This document shows, one piece after another, positions 1-15,694 of a stretch of DNA of 25,402 bases. How positions within the stretch are numbered: position 1 is the stretch's first letter; each line of letters starts with the position of its first letter. Location of the stretch: the UHGV virus genome UHGV-1747320; one strand, written 5' to 3'. Origin of the DNA: a virus. The translations under genes and the position numbers were made by a program. The notes under the pieces were generated by a model that was not told the origin of the DNA, did not search any database, and was given only the letters and a program-made list of their open reading frames with translations.

Positions 1-487
1 ATCCGAAAACATTCATACGCGCGATACCCACGACACGCCATTCCCCAAACAGCGAAGAAACACAGAATCACTGAACCCCCCCAACGAAGCCTGTAACCGC
101 AAGGCTTCTCTCAATCCCAAAAGACACGAAACATAACAATCACGGGAAACGCCATTACCCAATACACGAATAACTACAAAAGCCTTTCACGCACTCCAGA
201 CAAACACAATAACGAAAGGAATCGCCCACCTGCCATTACTCCATACACGGAGAAGAACAATCACCAAAACGACGAGAACACCCCATAGAAGAACCACCGC
301 AAAACGAACGAAACCACATACACCGACAGAGAGAACAACACACCCAATTCACCAACAGAAATAGTCGCCGTATAGAACGTTCTGGAAGGAGTGAGTATTA
401 ACGTCCATAGAGAGGTTGAGACAGATAAAACACGAAGAAAACACAGCATGTATAGCGAAGAAGCCAGGTATGTATAAGTGGGGAGGG
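1..487. other. Non-coding stretch with strong strand compositional asymmetry (plus strand A+C-rich, T and G depleted)
   Basis: No convincing ORF on either strand; track ORFs 261..524(-) and 416..793(+) have low-complexity, Cys/Arg/Trp-rich translations typical of non-coding DNA. Composition judged by eye. Ends at an intrinsic-terminator-like hairpin. Confidence 0.4.
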
Positions 488-511
488 AAGGAGGGGTGTC
501 GCCTCCTTTTT
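488..511 (+). terminator. Rho-independent terminator-like hairpin (stem AAGGAGG/CCTCCTT, loop GGTGTCG, then TTTT)
   Basis: Seen in sequence: 7-bp GC-containing inverted repeat 488-494/502-508 followed by a T-run 507-511. Confidence 0.5.
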
Positions 512-576
512 CGTATTTATTCAACTCCTGATTTTATCCCCCGTAACACCCCTACGGTCAGCCTTCGGTCCATACA

Positions 577-709
577 GGGAAAAGGTTGCATCCCGCTACA
601 GAAACGGCTGGGTTGCCTTCGGGGAACGGCTGGAGGTTTTCAGGGAAACGGTCGAGTTGCCTGTGTGGATTTCGGGAAAAGGCTCGATGCCGGTTCAGGA
701 ACGGTGGCG
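577..709 (+). repeat. Iteron-like array of six direct repeats, consensus (C)GGGAAACGGCTGG
   Basis: Copies begin at about 577, 599, 620, 641, 673 and 696, so spacing is mostly 21-23 bp (about two helical turns). A related cluster lies at 3532-3611. Confidence 0.6.
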
Positions 710-1021
710 TACCGGTATAGCGTGAGGGATAGTTGCGGCTGCCCACCTGTAATGTGCGGGAAGGAGAGAGACGATCACGTGCAGGCGGACTAACTTACCG
801 CTGGATTCCCTCTGAATGCCCAGCTACAGCGTAATTGTGCCAGACAGCCAGCGGGTCACAATCGATTTCAGTAGGTTTTCGGGGAGAGGATTATTCTGCC
901 CACCAGCCACCTTCGGCCACTAAATCAGAATAATGTAAAAAGTGTACTCGGTACTGAACCTGAAAACTCACTGCCAAAACCACATTCACCGGAATAAAAT
1001 CCTTTTTCGCCTGTGCGTTAT

Positions 1022-1056
1022 TGTGATAATAACACCAACAAGAAAACATGTTGTTT
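1022..1056 (+). promoter_or_regulatory. Early promoter module: extended -10 (TGtGATAAT, 1022-1030), conserved CAACAAGAAAACA leader, palindrome AAACA-tgt-TGTTT (1044-1056)
   Basis: The same module (GATAAT, then about 12 nt, then CAACAAGAAAACA and an AACAA-N-TTGTT palindrome) recurs at 2463-2494 and 2947-2978; related copies at 1509-1540 and 13727-13765. Confidence 0.55.
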
Positions 1057-1068
1057 AAGGATTGCTTT

Positions 1069-1398
1069 ATGTTTGCAAATATCGACATCAACCAAATTAA
1101 GAAATTGACTCAAAAAGAGTTTGACCAGTTCTGTGAGCTGGAAGGTTGGTCTTCCACTCTGATCAATTCGCGGTGGGTGCTTGATCTGATGACTCGTGAT
1201 GATGCACCTGCTTTGATGATTTGCGACATGGGTGAAGATGCTGACTTTATGGATATGAGCGAATTTTGTGTGGACACATACAACCGCAGCCAGAAGTACT
1301 ACTTCACATGCGATAGCGAAAATGACGTGATTTCTAAGGTCTATCTTCACCTCGTCCAGCATTGGGACGTTCAGGAGTTTCTTGAGGTATTCGAGTAA
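1069..1398 (+). CDS. Hypothetical small early protein (about 109 aa, acidic, Cys-containing)
   Basis: Track ORF 1048..1398. ATG at 1069 preferred because AAGGA at 1057-1061 lies 7 nt upstream; the 1048 ATG sits inside the promoter palindrome. Hairpin 1408-1424 follows the stop. Confidence 0.55.
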   Translation: MFANIDINQIKKLTQKEFDQFCELEGWSSTLINSRWVLDLMTRDDAPALMICDMGEDADFMDMSEFCVDTYNRSQKYYFTCDSENDVISKVYLHLVQHWDVQEFLEVFE

Positions 1399-1508
1399 AC
1401 CAATCACAGCCAGCATTGCTGGCTTAACTTAATCTGTAGCCGCAGGGAAGAACCTGCGTATCGCTCATGCGCCTGATCAATATGCTTTGTACCTGTTTTC
1501 TCACTGGT

Positions 1509-1540
1509 ATTATTTACGCCATTGAGAAAACAAGTTGTTT
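1509..1540 (+). promoter_or_regulatory. Promoter-like -10 (TATTAT 1509-1514) followed by palindrome AAACAA-g-TTGTTT (1528-1540)
   Basis: Same spacing between the -10 and the AACAAG element as in the other early modules; perfect 6-bp arms. Confidence 0.5.
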
Positions 1541-1551
1541 ACGGAGTTGTG

Positions 1552-1863
1552 ATGAAAAAATCATTGGTTCTTGGTCTGGACAAAGACCAGAAGCGAAAAG
1601 AGAAGCCTGCGCTGGTTGCTCAATTAACTTTGCTGGACATCGTTGCCAATGGAACCTCTATTCGTCTGTTCCGTGAAACAGCGGTGTCTTTCGATAAAAA
1701 CACCTTTACTCGTTATGTAATGAATGTTCGTCGCCAGCGTGGAAAAGGCTGGGTGGCATTTCAAAGAATGTGGCCGGAACATCAGCTCGAACTGGCTTTG
1801 ATGGAAGTTAACCGCGTGGCCCAGCAAGAAATTCAGAGAGCATCAGTGATGGCAATAGCCTGA
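1552..1863 (+). CDS. Hypothetical small basic protein (about 103 aa)
   Basis: Track ORF 1522..1863 begins at a TTG; the in-frame ATG at 1552 has GGAG at 1543-1546. Lys/Arg-rich N-terminus. Confidence 0.55.
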   Translation: MKKSLVLGLDKDQKRKEKPALVAQLTLLDIVANGTSIRLFRETAVSFDKNTFTRYVMNVRRQRGKGWVAFQRMWPEHQLELALMEVNRVAQQEIQRASVMAIA

Positions 1864-1897
1864 TAATGTGCAAGTGGTAATTAGTCGACAGTACGAC

Positions 1898-1926
1898 AGC
1901 CCCGCCATCCTTACGGGGCTTTTTTG
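1898..1926 (+). terminator. Rho-independent terminator (stem AGCCCCG/CGGGGCT then TTTTTT)
   Basis: Inverted repeat 1898-1904/1914-1920 followed by a T-run 1921-1926, directly after the stop of the 1552..1863 gene. Confidence 0.7.
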
Positions 1927-1930
1927 TATT

Positions 1931-1946
1931 GTAAGTACATACTTAC
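1931..1946. promoter_or_regulatory. Perfect palindrome GTAAGTA-ca-TACTTAC upstream of the 1990 gene
   Basis: Member of an AT-rich GTAAGTA/TAGATA palindrome family also seen at 10401-10419, 13655-13669, 15688-15709, 19115-19132 and 22691-22710. Confidence 0.45.
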
Positions 1947-1989
1947 GACTATAAAATAGAAAAATAACCAAGACACTACGGAGAGTGAA

Positions 1990-2385
1990 ATGACCGTTAA
2001 ACGCGAAAAACTGACAGTTGATGTTTACTATGCCTCTGAAACCGCCGAAGGTAAGAATGTGGCAAAAATCACCGTTGTTACGTACAACACCGAAACTGGT
2101 GCCGAAGTACAGGCCAGTACGATCGTGCGTAAAGGTGATGCCTCCGGCGGCGAGTACGCGACTCAATACCAGTCTATTCTCGATGCAACTGACCCGCTGC
2201 TGCTGAAAATCGAGAACTACTTCCGCCAGGTTGATGAAGAGGTGTTTGAAACCATGATGAGTATGGTTAATTCCGTATTCACCTCCAGCCTGAACACCAG
2301 CACCACCTGGATTGGCCAGTATGGTCTGCGCATTACCTCCGGCATTCCTGCTGACACCTTAATCCCTGAAAGCGTATTCGCTTAA
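1990..2385 (+). CDS. Hypothetical protein (131 aa)
   Basis: ATG at 1990 with GGAGAG 6-8 nt upstream; followed by an intrinsic terminator. Confidence 0.7.
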   Translation: MTVKREKLTVDVYYASETAEGKNVAKITVVTYNTETGAEVQASTIVRKGDASGGEYATQYQSILDATDPLLLKIENYFRQVDEEVFETMMSMVNSVFTSSLNTSTTWIGQYGLRITSGIPADTLIPESVFA

Positions 2386-2394
2386 TCCTCTTTG

Positions 2395-2422
2395 AATGGC
2401 GCGTAAACCGCGCCATTTTCTT
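2395..2422 (+). terminator. Rho-independent terminator (stem AATGGCGCG/CGCGCCATT, loop TAAAC, T-rich tail)
   Basis: 9-bp inverted repeat 2395-2403/2409-2417 followed by TTTTCTT. Confidence 0.7.
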
Positions 2423-2462
2423 ATGCCCGATAACAATTTGTTTTCTGCCTTATCTACACTGC

Positions 2463-2494
2463 GATAATTACAACAACAAGAAAACAACATGTTT
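2463..2494 (+). promoter_or_regulatory. Early promoter module copy 2: TGcGATAAT, CAACAAGAAAACA, palindrome AAACA-aca-TGTTT (2482-2494)
   Basis: Near-identical to 1022-1056; a further AACAA-t-TTGTT palindrome lies at 2432-2442. Confidence 0.55.
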
Positions 2495-2513
2495 ACGCAG
2501 TGAGGATATGCTC

Positions 2514-2795
2514 ATGACTGATTTCACCATTACCACCAAAGCACAAAATGTATTCCTCGAATCATGGCTGGACTTGCCGGAAACAGAACAGCAAGAAATG
2601 GATCATGTGGATTATGACGAGCAGGTAAGCACGCGATTCTTCCACTTTGAGGGATGCGTTTACGACATTGCCGACTTCATGCGAGATGACCGCTTCCCTG
2701 AATGGCACGCAAGCTATCCACTAAACGCCTTTGCCATGCTGATGATCCGTGTGGATGATTCAGGGGATACCATCGACATCGGTCTGCTCCACTGA
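2514..2795 (+). CDS. Hypothetical acidic small protein (about 93 aa)
   Basis: Track ORF 2508..2795; second ATG at 2514 chosen because GAGGA at 2502-2506 is 7 nt upstream. A wobble-containing hairpin without a T-run follows at 2801-2824. Confidence 0.55.
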   Translation: MTDFTITTKAQNVFLESWLDLPETEQQEMDHVDYDEQVSTRFFHFEGCVYDIADFMRDDRFPEWHASYPLNAFAMLMIRVDDSGDTIDIGLLH

Positions 2796-2946
2796 ATAAT
2801 AAGGTCACCAATGCTGGTGGCCTTAAATGACCATCCTGTTCCCCGCAGGCTAAAAACACCAACCTCTTACCTCCAGGCAACCGACAAACCCACCTGTTCC
2901 CGTCCGGCTACCGCAACTTTCCACTTTGACGCCTTATTCGTACAAC

Positions 2947-2978
2947 GATAATTAACGCCAACAAGAAAACAATTTGTT
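2947..2978 (+). promoter_or_regulatory. Early promoter module copy 3: GATAAT (2947-2952), CAACAAGAAAACA, palindrome AACAA-t-TTGTT (2968-2978); TTGACG -35 candidate upstream
   Basis: Same module as at 1022 and 2463. Confidence 0.55.
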
Positions 2979-2999
2979 ATTTACGATAAGGAATTAATC

Positions 3000-3482
3000 A
3001 TGAATTTTATCGCTACTGTAAACGCACCCGCACATGGCAATATCGCTGTAACGTTCTCTGACATTGAAAAACGAGTACTTGGTGCCTGGCGTCACAATGA
3101 GACGGTAGAACTGTCAGAACAAGAAAAATGCATTATTGCACGCGACATCATTGGCAATCGTCGTTACTCGCGGGTATTTGAGAAAGTGTATGTGGTAAAT
3201 TCTGGATTCGGAACGTTTGTTTTCCCGGTACGCTCCGGGCGATTCTGCCAGTCCAAGCTGATTGAGTTCGCTACGCAGATTTCGGTCTGGATTAAAACTC
3301 AATCGTCGTTCAAATTTTCCGACGATGAAGCAGTATCGCAGGGGATGCGGATCGCCAACAATGCAATTAAATGCAAAAACATTACGTATACCGCTGGCGT
3401 TGATACATGGAAACTGTTTTGCGCTAACTTTATGTTGAATGTATACGCAAGCAACCGCATCCACATCCTTGATGGCGTGTAA
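3000..3482 (+). CDS. Hypothetical protein (160 aa)
   Basis: ATG at 3000 with AAGGA at 2988-2992; terminator directly downstream. Confidence 0.7.
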   Translation: MNFIATVNAPAHGNIAVTFSDIEKRVLGAWRHNETVELSEQEKCIIARDIIGNRRYSRVFEKVYVVNSGFGTFVFPVRSGRFCQSKLIEFATQISVWIKTQSSFKFSDDEAVSQGMRIANNAIKCKNITYTAGVDTWKLFCANFMLNVYASNRIHILDGV

Positions 3483-3491
3483 CTGAGAAGA

Positions 3492-3512
3492 GGGCCAGAA
3501 ACGGCCCTTTCT
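3492..3512 (+). terminator. Rho-independent terminator (stem GGGCC/GGCCC, loop AGAAAC, then TTT)
   Basis: Inverted repeat 3492-3496/3503-3507 plus T-run; the loop carries the AGAAACGG iteron-like motif. Confidence 0.6.
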
Positions 3513-3531
3513 CTATAGCCACCAGCTGCCG

Positions 3532-3611
3532 CAGGGAAATTTTCAGAAACGGCGAGGAACGTATTCATGAGCCGACGGGAAACGGCCAGGATTTTTTCGG
3601 GAAACGGCTGC
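3532..3611 (+). repeat. Second cluster of GGGAAACGG-type direct repeats (copies near 3532, 3544, 3576, 3598)
   Basis: Sequences CAGGGAAA, CAGAAACGGCGAGG, CGGGAAACGGCCAGG, CGGGAAACGGCTGC; same consensus as the 577-709 array. Confidence 0.55.
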
Positions 3612-3735
3612 ATTCGCCTTTATGTAGAAAAAACATCGGGAAGCTGGTGGAATCCAACCAGCGGTTGTCGGACAGGTGAGCGGGGAAATCATGATGACTT
3701 TCGTCGCCTGAGACATCCAGATTTCTTTCGTAGCG

Positions 3736-3779
3736 TAATCACATACGTGATTAAGTGGTGTGATTATGTGAAAAATCAC
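3736..3779. promoter_or_regulatory. Two adjacent operator-like palindromes sharing a GTGATTA half-site (TAATCAC-atac-GTGATTA at 3736-3753; GTGATT-N8-AATCAC at 3760-3779)
   Basis: Seen in sequence; lies in non-coding DNA between the convergent operons. Confidence 0.4.
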
Positions 3780-3805
3780 GCGCACATAATACGCGAGCGG
3801 ATACG

Positions 3806-3850
3806 GAACAAAACAAAATGCCGATCCGCGCCGACAAATAAACGCGGATC
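3806..3850 (-). terminator. Terminator-like hairpin for leftward transcription (stem GATCCGCG/CGCGGATC with T-rich tract on the minus strand)
   Basis: 8-bp inverted repeat 3823-3830/3843-3850; on the minus strand it is followed by TTTTGTTTTGTT (3806-3820). Confidence 0.45.
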
Positions 3851-4019
3851 ACATAGCAAGACTAAAAGCCAATGATTAACCATACGCTATAGCGCAATAT
3901 AACGCGTTTTAAGCGCGTTAATGTGTTAAGTAATGGGTATGTACTGGTAAGGATATAAAAGCGCGTCTATGGCGTTATTTTGGCGCTTATTTTTATGTTG
4001 TTGGAGTGAGTTAAAGACA

Positions 4020-4047
4020 ATAAAAAACGCGCCATCATTGGCGCGTT
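4020..4047 (-). terminator. Rho-independent terminator for the leftward operon (stem AACGCGCC/GGCGCGTT)
   Basis: 8-bp inverted repeat 4026-4033/4040-4047; the minus strand reads hairpin then TTTTTT. Confidence 0.6.
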
Positions 4048-4065
4048 ATGGTGGGAGTATTGGAA

Positions 4066-4103
4066 ACGAAAAAAGCGCCCATAGTGGGCGCTCGATTTTA
4101 TTT
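4066..4103. terminator. Bidirectional terminator (stem AGCGCCC/GGGCGCT, loop ATAGT) flanked by A-run and T-run
   Basis: Stem 4074-4080/4086-4092; minus strand gives hairpin plus TTTTTT, plus strand gives hairpin plus T-rich tail. The 20-nt core is repeated in inverted orientation at 4571-4590. Confidence 0.65.
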
Positions 4104-4158
4104 GTGTAAACTGATTTTAAATCCCATTTCTACAAACGCTTTTAACATTAAAAATATA

Positions 4159-4329
4159 TCAGCGTCGTTCACGTCTGCTTTTTTTTCGCTCCTGGTCGCT
4201 CAATAAGTCAATTTTGCGCGTCGTTTCATCTATAAGCTCGACTGCGCGCCCAGCGTAACCAGCGATCCCAGCGATGCGATTAACATAATATTCATTATGG
4301 ACGTTAACGCCAGCGATAAGAACAAACAT
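4159..4329 (-). CDS. Possible small ORF (56 aa, hydrophobic N-terminus, basic C-terminus) not in the track (below its length cutoff)
   Basis: ATG at 4329 (minus) with GGAG 7 nt upstream, TGA stop at 4159-4161; lies between the 4351 gene stop and the terminator stack. Confidence 0.3.
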   Translation of the reverse strand: MFVLIAGVNVHNEYYVNRIAGIAGYAGRAVELIDETTRKIDLLSDQERKKSRRERR

Positions 4330-4602: not shown

Positions 4603-5253
4603 TTACGCTTTGAAAGCATCAGCTAGATAATTGTAGAAATCATTCTTGATAAAGCGATATTGCTGCGTACCAGCTTTGGCGCTTCCCATTCCTTTGACTT
4701 TCTCAACAAGTCCAAGACGTTCGCAAAGATTGATCAACTGGTTGGCTTGAGTATAGCCAGCGTCCAATTTAATCTCACACGCTTTTTTAGCTTCATTCAT
4801 TAAATCGAAAACAGCGCCATTAGTGAACGTGTCGATCTCGTCGTTAATCATATCGATTAAAGCAAATACACGAGATCCTGACATATCAGCGACGGAATAA
4901 GTGCATTTGCCAGATTTAATTGATTTAACCAGATAAACCAGTTTTTCCAGAGAATAACTATTAGTCATTGCATCACGGAAAAATACTTCTGGCGCTTGTT
5001 TGCTTGCTTTAATCGCATAGTAGAAAACAGAGCATAATTTTTCGTCTTCTACAGCGTTTACAACGTTGTTGGTGAAGTAAGCAAGTTTAGTGGTCGCAGC
5101 TTGCATATTTGCTTTGTCTGCTTTGGTGTGCGTACCATTTTTATAATGTTCGTTATATGTTTGAGTTGCCAGATCTGCTTTTTCGCGCAGCTCGTCGGAT
5201 ACAATAGATGCAGCTTCAATGATGGACTTTTTAGAAATGATAATGTTAGCCAT
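4603..5253 (-). CDS. Hypothetical protein (216 aa); C-terminal region may be a helix-turn-helix or winged-helix
   Basis: ATG at 5253 (minus) with AAGGA RBS; sigma70-like promoter upstream; codon usage consistent with the phage core. Confidence 0.7.
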   Translation of the reverse strand: MANIIISKKSIIEAASIVSDELREKADLATQTYNEHYKNGTHTKADKANMQAATTKLAYFTNNVVNAVEDEKLCSVFYYAIKASKQAPEVFFRDAMTNSYSLEKLVYLVKSIKSGKCTYSVADMSGSRVFALIDMINDEIDTFTNGAVFDLMNEAKKACEIKLDAGYTQANQLINLCERLGLVEKVKGMGSAKAGTQQYRFIKNDFYNYLADAFKA

Positions 5254-5311: not shown

Positions 5312-5350
5312 CAATTATCGATATGAGAAAAAAGATTGCAAGCGTTTTTT
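5312..5350 (-). promoter_or_regulatory. Sigma70-like promoter for the 4603..5253 gene (-35 TTGCAA, 17-bp spacer, -10 ATAATT on the minus strand)
   Basis: Read on the minus strand as TTGCAA-N17-ATAATT about 60 nt upstream of the start; a 13-nt poly-T run lies just beyond (about 5348-5360). Confidence 0.45.
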
Positions 5351-5493
5351 AATTTTTTTTTTTTTTTGCAGGGCGAAAGTCCTAGAAATAAATACGAGAT
5401 CGTCGAAGGTGTTCCCTAAATAAATAATCGATTCCGACTTTAGACCTTATATATTTATACGGGGTAGAATTGAAAGAGTATAAAATGAATGGC

Positions 5494-6214: not shown

Positions 6215-6274
6215 CTCAAAAAGGTAAAATTCGTTCAACCCAATCGAAGAAAACAAGAATTTTTCTGCCGTCTT
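6215..6274. repeat. Copy A of the about 58-bp direct repeat (overlaps the stop and last about 19 codons of 6216..6779)
   Basis: See 5850-5908. Confidence 0.7.
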
Positions 6275-6779
6275 TCAACTTAAGTGTGACTAGGCAGGCA
6301 TCAACGCCATCTGACGTTCCCTCAATTTCGCGGCCGTCTGCCATGTAGACCCTTATAGATTGGCCGTTTTGATAAGCCTTGCGACATATCTTAAAAAAAT
6401 CACGACGTGATGGCTGGTTGTCTACATAGTCAGGGTGTATTGTTAGTCTCCCTTTGAAATCGTAATCAATGCCATCAATTACGCCTGATTCAATTGTGCT
6501 AATGCGCTCAAGTGGGAGCCTTATACGATTTTCTTTGTCAAATGGAGTTGGACAAAGGTCAACTTTGTTACGAGATGACATGAGACCATAAACGTACATG
6601 CAAAACACTTGGCCGTCTTCGAGAGTGACTCTTACAGGAAATTTAGCCCTCCGCCAGAAGAGCAAGGTGCGTTCAGCATGTTCGTAGTCTCGCGGCCATA
6701 CTTCAGCCGGTATGCCGTAGGTGATATCTTTCGTCGTCATATCATTATAAAGTGGTTGGCAATATGTCCATTGTACCAT
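6216..6779 (-). CDS. Hypothetical protein (187 aa; possible alternative start at 6740)
   Basis: Long ORF without recognisable catalytic motifs; the C-terminal stretch SIRVYMADGREIEG...LVTLKLKDGRKILVFFDWVERI looks beta-rich; no clear SD for either start. Confidence 0.55.
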   Translation of the reverse strand: MVQWTYCQPLYNDMTTKDITYGIPAEVWPRDYEHAERTLLFWRRAKFPVRVTLEDGQVFCMYVYGLMSSRNKVDLCPTPFDKENRIRLPLERISTIESGVIDGIDYDFKGRLTIHPDYVDNQPSRRDFFKICRKAYQNGQSIRVYMADGREIEGTSDGVDACLVTLKLKDGRKILVFFDWVERILPF

Positions 6780-7191: not shown

Positions 7192-7740
7192 TTACATGCT
7201 ATTCTGAGTTCTGTTGTAAATATCTTTTAAGAGGTCATCTCTTTTTATGTTTTTACAGACTTTGTCGAAACTTAATTCACCTGATGATATGCAGTTGTTG
7301 TATTTTTCGATAAAATTTTTTAATGCCAGATGATTTTTGAAAAGAAAAGAAAAACCATAGGGTGACGTGCTATCTCTTATCCATTTCCGAGCACTGGGAT
7401 AAGTGTATAAATTTGAATGCAACTCCAATTTTCCAGGGGCCACGCCATCACAGGAGTCCATAATAGCGAACATTTTTGATATATCAAAAGGATAAAAGAC
7501 TACTCCGCAATTTGTCCTGGTGCCTTCAATATCTTTCACGTATATATAGTGTTCATAACGATCTTTACGTGAAGTCTTTAACCTGTATTGTATTAGTTTG
7601 TGCTCTTCTTTTTGAGAAGAAGTTAGGTGTCTAGGGTTTTCTAAGCAAGATTTCTGTTTATTTTTTTTATGATAAAAATCCACACAGTCCTTTATTTCCT
7701 TTGCACTTAAAAATCTCTTATCAAAAGGTAAGTGACCCAT
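7192..7740 (-). CDS. Hypothetical protein (182 aa), AT-rich, no recognised domain
   Basis: ATG at 7740 (minus) with GGAGG 5 nt upstream; Lys/Asn/Tyr-rich composition. Confidence 0.6.
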   Translation of the reverse strand: MGHLPFDKRFLSAKEIKDCVDFYHKKNKQKSCLENPRHLTSSQKEEHKLIQYRLKTSRKDRYEHYIYVKDIEGTRTNCGVVFYPFDISKMFAIMDSCDGVAPGKLELHSNLYTYPSARKWIRDSTSPYGFSFLFKNHLALKNFIEKYNNCISSGELSFDKVCKNIKRDDLLKDIYNRTQNSM

Positions 7741-8512: not shown

Positions 8513-8791
8513 TTACGGCAACCTGCTCAGTATTTCCTCTAGATCTTTTTTTGTCATATTGGAGTTTTCATAGATGCGCATGATTTTCTCACGCGTCTTA
8601 GCGGAAACCCCAACGGCAGATGTAACTTTGTCAAATTCAGCCATAGTCATCGTCTCCAGAATGGCATTGATAACTTCAGCCTTAGACATCTTGATTTTTT
8701 TCTCTTTGAGTTTTATTTGAAATTTTCCAAGTTTTTCATTGGCCTTATCAGACAATGCCACTTGGCAATAAGTTGTTTTCTTTTCGCTCAT
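8513..8791 (-). CDS. Small protein (92 aa), possibly ribbon-helix-helix-like DNA-binding; translationally coupled to the helicase
   Basis: ATG at 8791 lies 2 nt after the helicase stop (8794-8796). The fold guess is from a strand-helix-helix-like pattern (TYCQVAL ... SKAEVINAILET) only. Confidence 0.55.
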   Translation of the reverse strand: MSEKKTTYCQVALSDKANEKLGKFQIKLKEKKIKMSKAEVINAILETMTMAEFDKVTSAVGVSAKTREKIMRIYENSNMTKKDLEEILSRLP

Positions 8792-10400: not shown

Positions 10401-10419
10401 AAGTAAGTGATTACTTAGT
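10401..10419. promoter_or_regulatory. AT-rich imperfect palindrome (TAAGTAAGTGATTACTTAG) in the divergent promoter region between the helicase and ParB-like operons
   Basis: Follows a TATAAT hexamer at 10395-10400; member of the GTAAGTA palindrome family. Confidence 0.4.
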
Positions 10420-10435
10420 GGATTGTAGCAATAAA

Positions 10436-11116
10436 ATGGATGTAAAAATCACGATTTTGCAGGTTGATGTTGCCAACCTTCGCCCGAATACCTGGAACAC
10501 CAATTCGGTTGGTGCGCAGAATTTTGAAAAACTGAAAGGTTCTATCGAAAAATTGGGCTTTTTTAAGCCAATTTTGGCTCGTGAACTTGAAGATGGATTT
10601 TTTGAAATCCTCGGCGGCGAACATCGCTGGCGTGCTGCTATTGAGCAAGGAATTTCAACGGTTCCGGTGCTTTCTGTGGGCAAAATTAGCGATGTCGTAG
10701 CTAAACAGATGTCACTGGTGGACAACGAGCGATACGGTGAAGACGACCAAATCGCATTGCAACGCTTCATTGAAGAAATTCAGTCAGAACTTGACTATCA
10801 ACTGTCTGAAATTGCCCCGTATGACGACGAAATCTCGATGGTTTTAGCAAAAGAGGCGGCAATCGACCTTGAAGCACTGGAGGCGTTGTCTCGTGGTAGT
10901 GATGAGCCTGTCGATACCGACAAACGAGAGAAAACCGAACGTGTGGGTGCGGAACATCAGACCATGCGCTTCAAAGTAACTTTCGATGCGTCAGATCGTG
11001 TTGCAGAAACCATAAAAAACATCATCAAAGAGCAGGCTATTAACACCGGTAATGAAATGGAGAACGCTGGTGAGGCTCTGGTGTGGCTGGTCGACTACTA
11101 CAAGGAGCGTATGTAA
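10436..11116 (+). CDS. ParB/Srx-like N-terminal domain protein (about 226 aa)
   Basis: Signature FEILGGEHRWRAA (ParB GxxRxxA box); acidic C-terminal half. Track ORF begins at a GTG at 10418; ATG at 10436 used here. Confidence 0.75.
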   Translation: MDVKITILQVDVANLRPNTWNTNSVGAQNFEKLKGSIEKLGFFKPILARELEDGFFEILGGEHRWRAAIEQGISTVPVLSVGKISDVVAKQMSLVDNERYGEDDQIALQRFIEEIQSELDYQLSEIAPYDDEISMVLAKEAAIDLEALEALSRGSDEPVDTDKREKTERVGAEHQTMRFKVTFDASDRVAETIKNIIKEQAINTGNEMENAGEALVWLVDYYKERM

Positions 11117-11784
11117 TGACCAAAAAGTTTGAAATCGTATATCGCGACCCGGCAGATCTTATTCCCTATGAGATGAATGCCAAAAAGCATGATGAACAGC
11201 AGATCCGAGATCTGGCCGCAGCCATTAAAAAGCGCGGATTTGACCAGCCAATTACGGTCGATAAGAACGACGTAATTATTACTGGCCACGGCCGCCGTGA
11301 GGCTGCAATTTTTGCTGGACTTGAGCGCGTACCGGTTATTGTTCGCGATGATCTCAGTGATGACGAGGTTCGTGCGAAGCGCCTTGAAGATAACCGACTT
11401 GCCAGCATTGATTACGATGCAATTAAGCTACAGAAAGAACTTGAGTCGCTTGTTCTGGACGATATCGAGGTTTTCGGCTTTGAAGAGCGTGAGTTGAATG
11501 TTCTCGTTGGCAGTATGACAGAAGAAATGGACACCGATTCGCTAGTTATCGATCTTGGCGAAGAAACTAAACGACAGAAGGATGAACACACCGAGATCAG
11601 TCGTGAAGTTGCAGCGGAAGAAGTACGTGTTGTCGACGTATTGGGCTTTAAAACGCTCCCTGCTGGCTCTGCCATTGTTGTTGGTGATTTGCTTGCCCAC
11701 ATGGAAGAAATGACGGGAGAAAGCGGGGTAGACGCATTTGTGGCATATGCGGAGAAGATCTCTTCCGGGGAGATGGCTGCATGA
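11116..11784 (+). CDS. Second ParB/Srx-like domain protein (about 222 aa)
   Basis: Signature ITGHGRREAA; AAGGAG 8 nt upstream of ATG 11116; start overlaps the upstream stop (TAATG). Confidence 0.75.
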   Translation: MTKKFEIVYRDPADLIPYEMNAKKHDEQQIRDLAAAIKKRGFDQPITVDKNDVIITGHGRREAAIFAGLERVPVIVRDDLSDDEVRAKRLEDNRLASIDYDAIKLQKELESLVLDDIEVFGFEERELNVLVGSMTEEMDTDSLVIDLGEETKRQKDEHTEISREVAAEEVRVVDVLGFKTLPAGSAIVVGDLLAHMEEMTGESGVDAFVAYAEKISSGEMAA

Positions 11785-12446
11785 GCAAATACATCATCAA
11801 CGTATCGTTTCAGACACGCGTAAATAAAACCACGCGCACGTTGGAAATCGCTGAGTCGTTCGGGCTTGGTCTGGACGAAAAAGAGTGGACGCTTTACGAC
11901 AATCTGGAGCTGGAAGTGAAGCAGGGCGATGTGGTGTACATCACCGGCCAATCCGGTTCCGGCAAATCCGTTGTGCTGCGCGAGTTGCAACGACAGATGA
12001 AGGATGAAGGGCTGTCTGTAGCCTCCATCGATGATTTTACCTTCGATAATGAGGTTAACGTCATCGATCAGTTGGGCAAAACGACCAGTGATGCGCTTGG
12101 GTTGTTATCTATGGCTGGTCTGAACGATGCATATCTGTTTGTTCGCAAGCCTTCTGAAATGTCAGACGGCCAGAAATATCGTCTCAAGATTGCCAAACTG
12201 ATTGAGTCAGGCGCTAAAGTATGGGCTGCTGACGAGTTCGGCGCTGTTCTCGACCGTGTAACCGCTCAGGTTGTGGCGTCTAACCTCCAGCGTGCCGCTC
12301 GAAAGGTTGGTGCGACGGTAATGGTGGCGACGACTCACGAAGACCTGAAGAACGCGCTGCGCCCGGATATGCAGATCACCAAGCACTACAAAGAACGCGT
12401 GAAGGTGGAATATCACAATGGTAGTCATGATGAGGTCCATTCATGA
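11781..12446 (+). CDS. ABC-type (P-loop) ATPase domain protein (221 aa)
   Basis: Walker A GQSGSGKS, signature-like SDGQKYRL, Walker B VWAADEF, H-loop-like ATTHED; ATGA overlap with the upstream gene. Confidence 0.75.
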   Translation: MSKYIINVSFQTRVNKTTRTLEIAESFGLGLDEKEWTLYDNLELEVKQGDVVYITGQSGSGKSVVLRELQRQMKDEGLSVASIDDFTFDNEVNVIDQLGKTTSDALGLLSMAGLNDAYLFVRKPSEMSDGQKYRLKIAKLIESGAKVWAADEFGAVLDRVTAQVVASNLQRAARKVGATVMVATTHEDLKNALRPDMQITKHYKERVKVEYHNGSHDEVHS

Positions 12447-13333
12447 CGGACATCATCATTAAACGCTACCGCCCTGAAGAGTTTCCGCGTCATCTGGACT
12501 TTCTGGAGCGAATGACTGTTACAAAGGGAACTGTAGAGGACTGGCACGCTCTTAAGTCGCTTCACTACAAAACAGACGGCAAACCTTTCGCGCCAACTTA
12601 CTATCGCTGCGAACTTGATGACCGTCTGGTGGGCGTCGTGGTTATGGCTTACCCGAAACTACTGTTGGCACCTCGCCACCGCATGTTTCCTAAGTTGAAA
12701 CCAACCACTAATACCACCGTGGCTAACCAGTACTGGGGTCGGTACGTGAATAACAACTTTGCGGTGATCAGTCGCTCAGTTGTGGATACTCAGTATCGTG
12801 GCGTAGGCGTCTCTTATCGAATGATTAACCTGGTTAGCAGGATGCATGACCGGCCAATCATTGAGATCCAGTCCTCGATGAGCAAATACAATCCCTTCGC
12901 CATGAAAGCAGGGTTTAAGTTCATCCGCCCTGAGCGACCGAAGAGCTATGAAAGTGCACTGCGTGTATTCCAGCGCCATTTCCGTTCCGACCCGGGTGAT
13001 AACGAGGCGATCGTCAAAGAGTTGTTCGCAATGAGCGAGTCTCGTCGTCGCCGTGCACTGCGTGATCTGGTGGCGGACTACCACAAGAACAGTTCTCTGG
13101 CAAAAGCTGGGCGGAATCGTGGCACGACGATTCAGGACATTGCCGACAGTCTGGTGGACGAGGCCAGCATTGTGAAGCTGCTCAAGGACATTCACAACCT
13201 GAGCTTTACGTCTCCGTTGTATGGTGTGTACCGAAACCCTGACTTTGGCCGTCGACTGCCTGACACGCTGCCACTGCTGGCATTCGACAAACAACCTTTG
13301 GATAAACCGTTAGAAATTGCTTTACCGGCATAA
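12443..13333 (+). CDS. GNAT-like (acyl-CoA N-acyltransferase fold) protein (296 aa), assignment tentative
   Basis: Core resembling the GNAT motif A region (VVMAYP ... QYRGVGVSYRMI ... NPFAMKAGFKF); ATGA overlap with the ATPase gene. Confidence 0.6.
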   Translation: MTDIIIKRYRPEEFPRHLDFLERMTVTKGTVEDWHALKSLHYKTDGKPFAPTYYRCELDDRLVGVVVMAYPKLLLAPRHRMFPKLKPTTNTTVANQYWGRYVNNNFAVISRSVVDTQYRGVGVSYRMINLVSRMHDRPIIEIQSSMSKYNPFAMKAGFKFIRPERPKSYESALRVFQRHFRSDPGDNEAIVKELFAMSESRRRRALRDLVADYHKNSSLAKAGRNRGTTIQDIADSLVDEASIVKLLKDIHNLSFTSPLYGVYRNPDFGRRLPDTLPLLAFDKQPLDKPLEIALPA

Positions 13334-13688: not shown

Positions 13689-13726
13689 CTTAATAAGACA
13701 TGCCCAGACCTAATTAAACAACCCAG

Positions 13727-13786
13727 AAAACAAGTTGGTTAGAAAATGCAGTAAACAAGTTGTTTTAGAGCGCATGGACGCGCTCT
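13727..13786 (+). promoter_or_regulatory. Regulatory region upstream of terS: two AAACAAG-TTG(G/T)TT palindromes (13727-13740, 13753-13765) and hairpin AGAGCGC/GCGCTCT (13767-13786)
   Basis: The same palindrome as in the early promoter modules; the hairpin is flanked by a direct repeat GTTTTAGAG. Confidence 0.5.
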
Positions 13787-13805: not shown

Positions 13806-14438
13806 ATGACGGTCGAAAAAGACGAGGTAAAAACTCGCCTGACACCAGCGGAGTGGGCCGAAGCTGAAGCCAAATGGACGTCAGGCGAATATACACTCTC
13901 AAAGCTGGAGGAAGAGTACGGCATTCGTCGTGAAACACTCTCCAGACATTTCAAAAAGCGAGGATTAGAGAAAGGCGCGGACTCTGTTGGGAAGATGGTT
14001 CGTGAGTCTCTTAAATCTGACGCAGAGCTTCGCGCTAAAGCCCGTGCGGAAAAGATAGAAGAACGTCGTACACGTTATGACGGCTGGGCGTATGCGTTGG
14101 GGCAGATGGTGATGGTCGAAGTCACTACGGCCAAACGTGAGGGTAAGCCTTTAGGGGCGATTGAGGATTCTCTCAAGAGCTTACAGAGAGCCAGTAATAC
14201 CCTTGCAAAATGCTTTGAAGTTTCGTCCAAAGCATTGGGCATGGATCATGCGGAAAATGACGAGGAAGAAATTCCGAACCTGGTATTTGGTGAGCTTACG
14301 CCTTCCCAGGTGGCGAAATTACGTCAGGAAGACGACGAGCCTGAAATCATCGATGACGAATTGCTTGAGACGTTGGAAGAAGAAGCTCTAAGCGAATTTG
14401 ATGCGACAGATGATGGAAGTGAAGGGGAGGACGAATAA
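13806..14438 (+). CDS. terS: Terminase small subunit (210 aa)
   Basis: Position immediately upstream of and overlapping the large terminase (TAATG); N-terminal HTH-like region and a strongly acidic C-terminal tail. Confidence 0.75.
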   Translation: MTVEKDEVKTRLTPAEWAEAEAKWTSGEYTLSKLEEEYGIRRETLSRHFKKRGLEKGADSVGKMVRESLKSDAELRAKARAEKIEERRTRYDGWAYALGQMVMVEVTTAKREGKPLGAIEDSLKSLQRASNTLAKCFEVSSKALGMDHAENDEEEIPNLVFGELTPSQVAKLRQEDDEPEIIDDELLETLEEEALSEFDATDDGSEGEDE

Positions 14439-15694
14439 TGGCAATCCCGTCCTCGCTCAGTCTTGTGCAACTGCATTCTGGACAGATGAAAGTCTTCCAG
14501 TCTCCGCATCGATTTAAAGTTGTTTGTGCTGGTCGACGCTGGGGAAAATCCCGGTTGTCGATCTCCACTATTATTCGTGCGGCGGCAAAGGAAAAAAAGC
14601 AAAGGGTCTGGTATGTCGCTCCTACTTACCAGATGGCTCGCCAGATTTTGTGGGACGATCTACAGGAAGTTCTGCCTCGTAAGTGGGTTAGGAAAAAGAA
14701 CGACACCACGATGACAATCGTGTTGAAGAACGGTTCGGAGATCGCCCTCAAAGGTGCTGATAAGCCTGACACTCTGCGCGGCGTAGCGTTGCATTTTGTA
14801 GTGCTTGATGAATTTCAGGATATGAAGGCTGACACCTGGTACAAGGTGTTACGACCTACTCTTTCATCGACACGCGGCGGTGCACTGATCATTGGTACGC
14901 CAAAAGGCTTCTCGGAGTTTCACAAACTGTGGACTATAGGCCAGAACGTAGAGCTGCAAAGAAAGGGACAGTGGAAGAGCTGGCAGTTTGTAACTGCCGA
15001 TTCTCCGTTTGTACCTACGGCGGAAATTGAAGCTGCTAAGAACGATATGGACCCCAAATCGTTCGCTCAGGAGTACCTGGCCAGCTTTGAGAACATGTCC
15101 GGGCGCGTTTACTACCCGTTCGATCGTAACGTGCATGTAAAACCGCTTCAGTTCAACCCTCGGTTGCCTATATGGGTAGGGCAGGACTTCAACATTGACC
15201 CGATGTCTTCCGTAATTTTGCAACCTCAGCCAAATGGTGAGCTATGGGCAATTGATGAATTGGTGCTCTTTTCCTCTAACACGGCAGAAGTTTGTGATGA
15301 GCTTGAGAGACGCTTCTGGCGCTGGAAATCACAGGTAACGGTATTTCCAGATCCGGCAGGTGCTTATCGCCAACATGCTCGTGGGGAGTCTGACGTAGAC
15401 ATATTCAAAGAGAAGGGATTCTTACGTGTCGATTATTCGAAAAAGCACCCGCCAATTGCGGATCGTGTTAATGCTGTTAACCGAATGCTGATGACCGCAT
15501 CTGGAGATATCCGGCTGTATATCGATCCGAAGTGCAAGCATTTGATTGATTCACTGGAAAAAGTCATCTACAAGCCTGGAACACGAGATATGGATAAGAC
15601 AGGTGGCATTGAGCATAGTGCAGACGCATTGGGCTATCCAGTACATCGTAGGTATCCAGTCAAAAACCGTGTTATTCTTGGTGGTTCTAGATAG
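14438..15694 (+). CDS. terL: Terminase large subunit (418 aa)
   Basis: Walker A VVCAGRRWGKS, Walker B FVVLDEFQDM, C-terminal nuclease-like acidic residues; GGAGG RBS. Confidence 0.9.
   Translation: MAIPSSLSLVQLHSGQMKVFQSPHRFKVVCAGRRWGKSRLSISTIIRAAAKEKKQRVWYVAPTYQMARQILWDDLQEVLPRKWVRKKNDTTMTIVLKNGSEIALKGADKPDTLRGVALHFVVLDEFQDMKADTWYKVLRPTLSSTRGGALIIGTPKGFSEFHKLWTIGQNVELQRKGQWKSWQFVTADSPFVPTAEIEAAKNDMDPKSFAQEYLASFENMSGRVYYPFDRNVHVKPLQFNPRLPIWVGQDFNIDPMSSVILQPQPNGELWAIDELVLFSSNTAEVCDELERRFWRWKSQVTVFPDPAGAYRQHARGESDVDIFKEKGFLRVDYSKKHPPIADRVNAVNRMLMTASGDIRLYIDPKCKHLIDSLEKVIYKPGTRDMDKTGGIEHSADALGYPVHRRYPVKNRVILGGSR

Follow-up and report, generated by a model that had tools for sequence, protein, structure and literature searches.

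The window analyzed here, the whole 25,402-nt stretch of virus genome UHGV-1747320, comes from a phage-plasmid of the SSU5/pHCM2/pLF82 (Cyrano) type. Its first 4.2 kb are 96.7% identical to Escherichia phage Cyrano, the pLF82 phage-plasmid, with Klebsiella phage-plasmids and Salmonella phage SSU5 giving weaker matches. Two arrays of short direct repeats, array 1 at 575–709 and array 2 at 3532–3611, both on the plus strand, bracket a cassette of five small early genes (1048–3482, plus strand), so that the arrays do flank the early gene block, as a preliminary description of this DNA had stated. Array 1 lies inside the largest non-coding gap of these phage-plasmids (1.4–1.8 kb), ahead of the small early-gene run.

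Each gene of the cassette possesses an extended -10 promoter, a GAAAACAAnnTGTT palindrome, and a terminator, and only the last of them (3000–3482, 160 aa) is present in all lineages. The promoters, in which the extended -10 (TGnGATAAT) is followed by the palindrome, can be found at 1025–1064, 1509–1548, 2463–2502, and 2948–2990. The GAAAACAAnnTGTT element also occurs at 2429–2445, 8767–8780, and 13726–13767, and at 30915–30945 of the relative L005. Since one further copy is found at the parA promoter of a related plasmid and two lie upstream of the terS-like gene (17 matches versus 4.7 expected), it defines a separate regulon, probably as the operator of a global regulator. Between the fourth and fifth early genes (2830–2910) there are three direct repeats of 28–30 bp (ACC[CA]ACCTnTTCC..CAGGCTA), members of a family that is also present inside the A/C-rich tract of relatives (L002 5437–5520).

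This tract occupies positions 1–360 of the window and about 900 nt in relatives (e.g., L002 5080–5950). It is A/C-rich, G- and T-poor, and strongly strand-asymmetric, with a GC skew of -0.33 to -0.48 and an AT skew of up to +0.8, and has its own dispersed repeat, CGCCATTACCC...ACGGAGAAGAAC, at 36, 150, and 231. It terminates at a terminator-like hairpin (485–512), which is a clean terminator in the E. coli lineage only, and it may serve for Rho loading or give an unstructured RNA. At the other end of the cassette, positions 3780–4100 form a conserved non-coding region with many ACGCG/GCGCG hairpins and bidirectional terminators, situated between convergent gene blocks. Its weak, sub-threshold Rfam matches are to Hfq-binding sRNAs (Hrs1, E = 0.002, and isrK), and it may encode small RNAs. 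Chi sites (GCTGGTGG) are abundant, with eight copies in 25 kb versus 0.56 expected, at 900–907(-), 2813–2820(+), 3519–3526(-), 3643–3650(+), and four other positions; array 2 is flanked by two Chi in inverted orientation, and the copy at 3519–3526 is kept in several relatives, not all.

The short motif common to both clusters is GGGAAACGG. Array 1 consists of six direct copies of a 9–11-bp motif, all on the same strand: GGGAAAAGG (577–585), CAGAAACGG (599–607), CGGGGAACGG (620–629), CAGGGAAACGG (641–651), CGGGAAAAGG (673–682), and CAGGAACGG (696–704), with cores of the form G[AG]AA[AC]GG at 579, 601, 623, 645, 676, and 698. Every copy begins where the preliminary description had placed it, but the periodicity of about 21 bp given there should be amended to 22 bp with one 31-bp step (22-22-22-31-22). 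At 10.5 bp per turn, the six sites fall within one third of a turn, the 31-bp step offsetting the drift of the 22-bp steps, which agrees with the earlier proposal that they share one face of the DNA. The array GC content is 58%.

Array 2 has full-copy cores at 3546, 3579, and 3601, spaced 33 and 22 bp apart, within CAGAAACGG (3544–3552) and two copies of CGGGAAACGG (3576–3585 and 3598–3607); CAGGGAAAT at 3532–3540 and another copy at 3555–3563 are partial. The second cluster is therefore real, but only three of the four copies previously assigned to it are full ones, that at 3532–3540 being partial. A further copy, CCAGAAACGG (3495–3504, plus strand, core 3498), is present, as had been noted, in the loop of the 3492–3512 intrinsic terminator of the last early gene. 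Its membership of the array is doubtful, since it lies 48 bp from array 2 and out of helical phase; in relatives this loop reads TGGAAAC or CAGAAAC. Directly upstream of array 1 is a conserved block, CACCCCTACGGTCAGCCTTCGG (545–574, plus strand), which is present in all lineages, including the most distant, and as an identical string in the relative L143.

Searching the window and its relatives for the motif, a check proposed from the start, showed clustering beyond chance, even though the overall frequency is near expectation. The 7-mer G[AG]AA[AC]GG is not enriched across the window (18 matches versus 13.4 expected), whereas the largest same-strand cluster within 130 nt holds six matches, compared with a maximum of three in 2000 dinucleotide-preserving shuffles. 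With a 16-nt weight matrix built from the ten sites, the window and a complete 109-kb relative each have scores of at least 13 bits only in the two clusters and at a single isolated site. We rejected a protein-coding repeat because the 22-nt period is not a multiple of three and the overlying Cyrano ORF, CYRAN_104, is not conserved.

Conservation of the arrays among related elements

Some 100 related loci, drawn from annotated plasmids and IMG/VR contigs, of Escherichia, Salmonella, Klebsiella, Enterobacter, Kluyvera, Cronobacter, and Yersinia pMT1, have both arrays at the same positions and identically spaced. The boundaries of the IMG/VR loci are unusable as genome ends, since the stored stretches are arbitrary chunks. 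The 22-22-22-31-22 pattern is unchanged in most of these loci, with shortened forms in the Klebsiella types, and 54 distinct related sequences, that of Y. pestis pMT1 among them, have array 2 spaced 33/34-22.

In alignments of 13 lineages of less than 95% identity, the motif cores are kept and the spacers are replaced. Between the window and pHCM2, for example, 48 of the 54 motif columns of array 1 are identical (89%), compared with 42 of the 80 spacer columns (53%; Fisher p = 1e-5), and column entropy likewise separates motif from spacer (p = 2e-5). Two deep lineages possess two to three copies of the unchanged motif at both positions, with looser spacing, and an adjacent 160-aa protein that is 31–33% identical. 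This early protein beside array 2 was deprioritized as a binder on account of that low identity where the motif is unchanged and the lack of a family or PDB match.

Positions 380–1000 of the window matched 716 PLSDB plasmids, nearly all of them non-mobilizable and 100–120 kb in size. One exceptional case is the E. albertii plasmid NZ_CP126909.1, a 62-kb deletion derivative from which all virion genes, the terminase, and the ParB-like genes are gone, and which retains RepA, ParA, the replisome genes, the early cassette, the gene for the winged-helix (wHTH) protein discussed below, and both arrays; further E. albertii plasmids of similar size (62–64 kb) also matched. A few invariant motif bases are altered in this derivative (e.g., TCGGGAAACAGC), a weak hint that constraint may be relaxed once the phage mode is lost.

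Most matches of an array-derived 20-mer in GTDB genomes were chance ones, the useful ones being limited to Kluyvera relatives, and in the literature consulted we found no description of these repeats, of a lytic origin, or of the virion ends of SSU5-like elements. An unrelated high-GC phage contig (L096, IMG/VR UViG_3300046714_000194, 1540–1680) has a GGGAAACGG cluster of its own, with direct and inverted copies, some of them 11 bp apart, just downstream of a 413-aa ORF that is RecA/DnaB-like by eye only.

Replication, partition, and terminase modules

The plasmid replicon of these elements is easily located. The record of NZ_CP148383.1 begins with a 364-aa RepA (Pfam Rep3_N), 36 kb from the arrays, and RepA is preceded by TTATCCACA, a GATC-rich block, and five TATGCTGTCAGCGGT iterons, with about a dozen more iterons downstream. 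In all, some 17 copies of this P1-like iteron flank RepA, and a DnaA box and GATC repeats are present at oriR. On the evidence of its sequence, the RepA region is a P1-type oriR/incA.

Iteron origins possess tandem direct repeats about two helical turns apart, and the arrays have this geometry (22-22-22-31-22 and 33-22); their repeats do not match those beside the cognate rep gene. No conserved AT-rich unwinding element or DnaA box adjoins them, neither the only AT-rich stretch nearby (505–545) nor a 7/9 match to a DnaA box being conserved in relatives. The cumulative GC skew of the whole plasmid shows a break at oriR only and nothing at the arrays. We therefore rejected the arrays as RepA iterons, given a rep gene and P1-like origin 36 kb away with a different repeat, and the replication origin listed among the candidate roles in the preliminary description does not apply to the plasmid state, for which oriR lies elsewhere with other iterons and the arrays lack an unwinding element, DnaA box, or skew signal. 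The only origin role left for them is a possible, separate lytic origin.

The partition operon is 42 kb away and encodes a 222-aa ParA (MipZ/ParA Pfam) and a 117-aa RHH-like partner, behind a GAAAACAAGTTGTTTC palindrome; the centromere of this ParA system was rejected as an identity for the arrays on location and motif. Within the window, a block at 10418–13333 on the plus strand, just ahead of the terminase module, encodes two proteins with a ParB N-terminal domain and then an ABC-type ATPase and a 296-aa protein. Of the two ParB-like proteins, the first can be aligned with Spo0J through its HTH, and the block is kept even in the most distant relative (L148). The terminase module comprises a terS-like gene (13806–14438) and terL (14438–15694), which encodes a large terminase of T4-like type, 10–13 kb from the arrays and separated from them by an opposite-strand block.

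The 216-aa winged-helix protein and transcription of the region

To the right of array 2, several genes are retained in relatives, and one of them, at 4603–5253 on the minus strand, encodes the candidate binder. It is a 216-aa protein (PHROG 1513) with predicted long N-terminal helices and a predicted C-terminal winged helix. It has no Pfam, NCBIfam, or PDB sequence match, and a BFVD fold search with its model returned nothing significant; TubR and AspA are among the structural matches of the predicted model. The protein is 83–87% identical across genera, which places it among the best-conserved nearby gene products, and a profile search of 1.84 billion representative proteins recovered only 23 clusters of the family.

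A distant member, 34% identical, is encoded by the low-GC relative L148. The gene order there is that of the window (two ParB-like genes, helicase, wHTH gene, intergenic region, and then convergent small genes), and the HTH segment DAGYTQ.NQLI.L.ER.GLV is almost identical in the two proteins. At the position of array 2, the otherwise unalignable L148 intergenic region holds two AAAGGGAA(A/C)GTTTTCCCAT palindromes, 57 bp apart, with the same half-site; they account for two of the four GGGAAMG matches in 10 kb, where 1.0 would be expected. Their palindromic form argues for a dimer that recognizes double-stranded DNA. From this adjacency and the co-conservation of HTH segment and half-site, we infer that the 216-aa protein is the most likely binder of the motif. 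The wHTH protein, mentioned only in passing in the preliminary description, has thus become the best lead through its winged-helix prediction, its conservation, and this shared half-site.

Two other features of this part of the window should be recorded. A run of 15 A (5340–5365, minus strand) lies directly upstream of the TTGCAA -35 of the wHTH gene promoter and may be an UP element or a slippage-prone tract. The 182-aa ORF at 7192–7740 was rejected, as it has no matches and is not the "transcriptional regulator" annotated in relatives. That annotation belongs to the protein encoded at 6216–6779 on the minus strand, which has a strong Pfam Flag1_repress match and is a member of the FljA family. 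The gene is core in all but the most distant relative examined (L148), non-flagellate Klebsiella elements included, and is induced about 16-fold in LF82 outside LB; the predicted fold consists of two tandem Sm/Hfq-like domains. Salmonella FljA may derive from such a phage-plasmid regulator.

Published RNA-seq of LF82 is informative with regard to when these genes act. In LB lysogens, expression of the wHTH gene (CYRAN_113) is at floor level, the only rise being seen at 6 h in macrophages, and the highly expressed S24 LexA-like protein is CYRAN_98 (PMC9928086, S1 table). The silence of the wHTH and ParB-like genes in LB lysogens makes a role in plasmid maintenance unlikely and fits the phage mode. 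CYRAN_104, the ORF over array 1, has log2 values of 2.6–4.7 in all ten samples, where the floor is 2.32, and its signal does not rise along with that of the adjacent early genes, which reach 7.5–7.8 in macrophages (PMC9928086, S1 table).

The arrays themselves carry no RNA signals. An Rfam E-value scan of positions 1–4300 found no match at the arrays, the z-scores in single-sequence folding of both strands were -0.5 and -0.1, and RNAalifold across 11 lineages returned a covariation term of +1.18, where positive values are unfavorable. A structured or sponge ncRNA of the CsrB type would be expected to have its own promoter and terminator, structure, covariation, and an abundant transcript, none of which is seen here, and no sigma-70-like promoter overlapping the arrays could be recognized on either strand. 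Conserved motif and spacing, diverged spacers, the lack of RNA structure, and a region that is almost untranscribed are all consistent with an iteron-like protein-binding array, as originally suggested.

Proposed function and comparison with known systems

The two arrays, with their conserved motif and spacing, stand apart from oriR, parA, and the terminase genes. We favor, without giving it an even chance, the view that they are binding sites for a protein of the phage-plasmid, likely the 216-aa wHTH protein, acting in the phage mode. Each array would offer phased, same-orientation sites to this sequence-specific protein, with units 22 bp apart (31–34 bp where the spacing is irregular), all on one face of the helix, that could assemble cooperatively through the long N-terminal helices predicted for the protein. 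The two co-oriented arrays, 2.9 kb apart, could then be bridged and the early-gene cassette looped out, in a complex that would lie outside the plasmid replicon and the ParA partition system and would work in the phage (lytic) mode. As a more specific form of this proposal, by analogy with the P4 ori/crr pair or R6K looping, we prefer a second, lytic-phase replicon: a bipartite origin in which two co-oriented GGGAAACGG arrays, an origin and a distant enhancer site, are looped over the early cassette with the wHTH protein as initiator or organizer. This is possible but rather speculative, the looping and the replication role both being inferred.

What favors a cis element of the phage mode is a replisome separate from RepA, the silence of the wHTH and ParB-like genes, and the E. 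albertii derivative. These phage-plasmids encode their own DnaB-like helicase, primase, Pol III alpha, gp32-like SSB, ligase, and RNase H, and such a self-encoded replisome needs an entry site distinct from RepA/oriR, which is a point for a lytic origin. Against a lytic origin, there is no unwinding element, DnaA box, or skew signal, and the arrays are not beside the helicase and primase genes. One should also keep in mind that distant lineages hold only two to three copies per array with looser spacing, and that a position just after terminators would equally suit an insulator or roadblock.

That last point leads to the reading of the protein-bound arrays as a boundary or regulatory complex, that is, an insulator, roadblock, or looping scaffold that isolates the cassette from read-through and tunes its expression. 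The borders of the cassette are each marked by a terminator-like hairpin (485–512 and 3492–3512) with an array directly downstream, a Rho-loading-like tract that is rich in C and poor in G lies upstream, and two site clusters 2–3 kb apart recall the looping of lambda OL/OR. We nevertheless regard this explanation as unlikely, though worth serious attention, because the arrays overlap no recognizable promoter, as operators of the lambda OL/OR type would, a palindromic operator-like element is already present at each early promoter, and lysogens, in which the cassette is nearly silent, do not express the candidate binder. Packaging is a less probable function, and one for which we see only a slim chance. 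The arrays would here be a pac-like site that wraps an oligomer of the small terminase or an accessory protein, with headful packaging starting near the early genes. Small-terminase sites typically consist of phased repeats, the large terminase belongs to the T4-like type, and the R sites of lambda cosB have what we take to be a common core, GGAAACG, with the array motif; in T7 and T5, the early genes adjoin the genome end. This likeness to cosB R sites and the idea of a LytTR/AlgR-like 9-mer with a 13-bp spacer were both set aside, and neither a Nu1-like nor a LytTR protein was found. Sites of the pac/cosB type are adjacent to or within the small-terminase gene, whereas 10–13 kb and an opposite-strand block separate the arrays from the terminase genes, and the usual place of pac, directly upstream of the terS-like gene, holds an 88-aa DNA-binding protein and palindromes. 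No public phage record begins at the arrays, and in the published LF82 virome (run ERR8973296) the Cyrano coverage is indistinguishable from the plasmid background. The pac site proposed in the preliminary description has nothing positive in its favor.

The same description had offered a centromere for the ParB-like proteins, a notion that can be widened to a centromere-like or silencing site bound by those two proteins or by a TubR/AspA-like adaptor and used in partition or DNA condensation. We find this hard to credit. Palindromes are the usual sites of ParB HTH dimers, but the motif is asymmetric, and the arrays do not adjoin a partition operon, a complete type Ib pair (ParA and its RHH-like partner) already existing 42 kb off. 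In LB lysogens, where the element is stably maintained, RNA-seq puts the ParB-like genes (CYRAN_119/120) and the wHTH gene at or near the floor, so that the would-be binders are not expressed in the plasmid state, and the 62-kb E. albertii derivative is maintained without the ParB-like genes, with the arrays still present. Finally, the repeats might be read in a transcript, as target or sponge, by an RNA-binding protein such as the FljA-family protein or, through GGA, host CsrA. All copies are co-oriented with the flanking transcription units, and GGA occurs nine times in the roughly 150 nt of array 1. The FljA-family protein is modeled with two Hfq-like domains and, being core even in non-flagellate Klebsiella elements, would need a target in the phage-plasmid itself. 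The target of FljA-type proteins is fliC mRNA (PMC2652032). The E. coli fliC 5'UTR has GAGCCGACGGG..GAAAC in common with one array-2 unit at positions 3568–3586, the counterpart being the E. coli K-12 5'UTR (L145, about 850–870, minus strand), with 11 nt of identity and then GAAAC. Only the E. coli lineage of the phage-plasmid has that 11-nt match, however, and chance alone would give about 0.6 per window. The arrays come after terminators and have no promoter or terminator of their own, the fold z-scores and covariation are unsupportive, and the RNA-seq signal of array 1 is near the floor and uncoupled from its neighbors. In addition, the best-conserved motif bases (AAMGG) differ from the GGA core of CsrA, and in L148 the sites are palindromic and the stretch from the helicase gene to the wHTH gene holds no FljA-like gene. 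We consider an RNA-level role very improbable indeed.

If the arrays are indeed a lytic-phase origin bound by the wHTH protein, they would be a functional counterpart of P1 oriL/RepL that is built like P4 ori/crr, with an initiator from a previously uncharacterized winged-helix family. SSU5-like phage-plasmids are clinically widespread and among the commonest in the Enterobacterales, with the region present in more than 700 PLSDB plasmids, and the carriers include S. Typhi pHCM2, Y. pestis pMT1, pLF82, and KPC- or OXA-carrying Klebsiella elements. A conserved array pair, unique in the genome and with a plausible cognate protein, gives the researcher an experimental handle on the switch from plasmid to phage, and the pair is also a compact diagnostic signature of the SSU5-type family.

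Among the known systems, the iterons of theta plasmids and phages (P1 oriR/incA, F, R6K, and lambda ori) share with the arrays short co-oriented repeats about 22 bp apart, a conserved core, and variable spacers, which is the geometry one might expect for cooperative winged-helix binding on one face of the DNA. They differ in that the Rep_3 initiator of this element has other iterons 36 kb off, the array core is only 9–11 bp, and the arrays lack an adjoining DnaA box, GATC cluster, or AT-rich unwinding element. The TubR-tubC, ParR-parC, and AspA centromeres are likewise direct-repeat arrays, sometimes in two clusters, coated by a small DNA-binding protein; the present arrays have no adjacent motor gene, coexist with a separate ParA/RHH pair, and have a candidate binder that is silent in the plasmid state. 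Lambda OL/OR also consists of site clusters with a spacing of about two helical turns, 2–3 kb apart and flanking a gene block, but its operators are pseudo-palindromic, overlap promoters, and bind a repressor that is abundant in lysogens, whereas the arrays are asymmetric sites outside promoters with a candidate binder silent in lysogens. P4 uses its large primase-helicase alpha protein as binder, with a proven need for both sites, whereas the candidate here is a 216-aa protein with a single predicted winged helix. P4 ori/crr and R6K looping nevertheless offer the likeness that we prefer: two co-oriented clusters of the same motif, a few kilobases apart on either side of a gene block and conserved together in a phage-plasmid, for which an element-encoded bridging protein would be expected.
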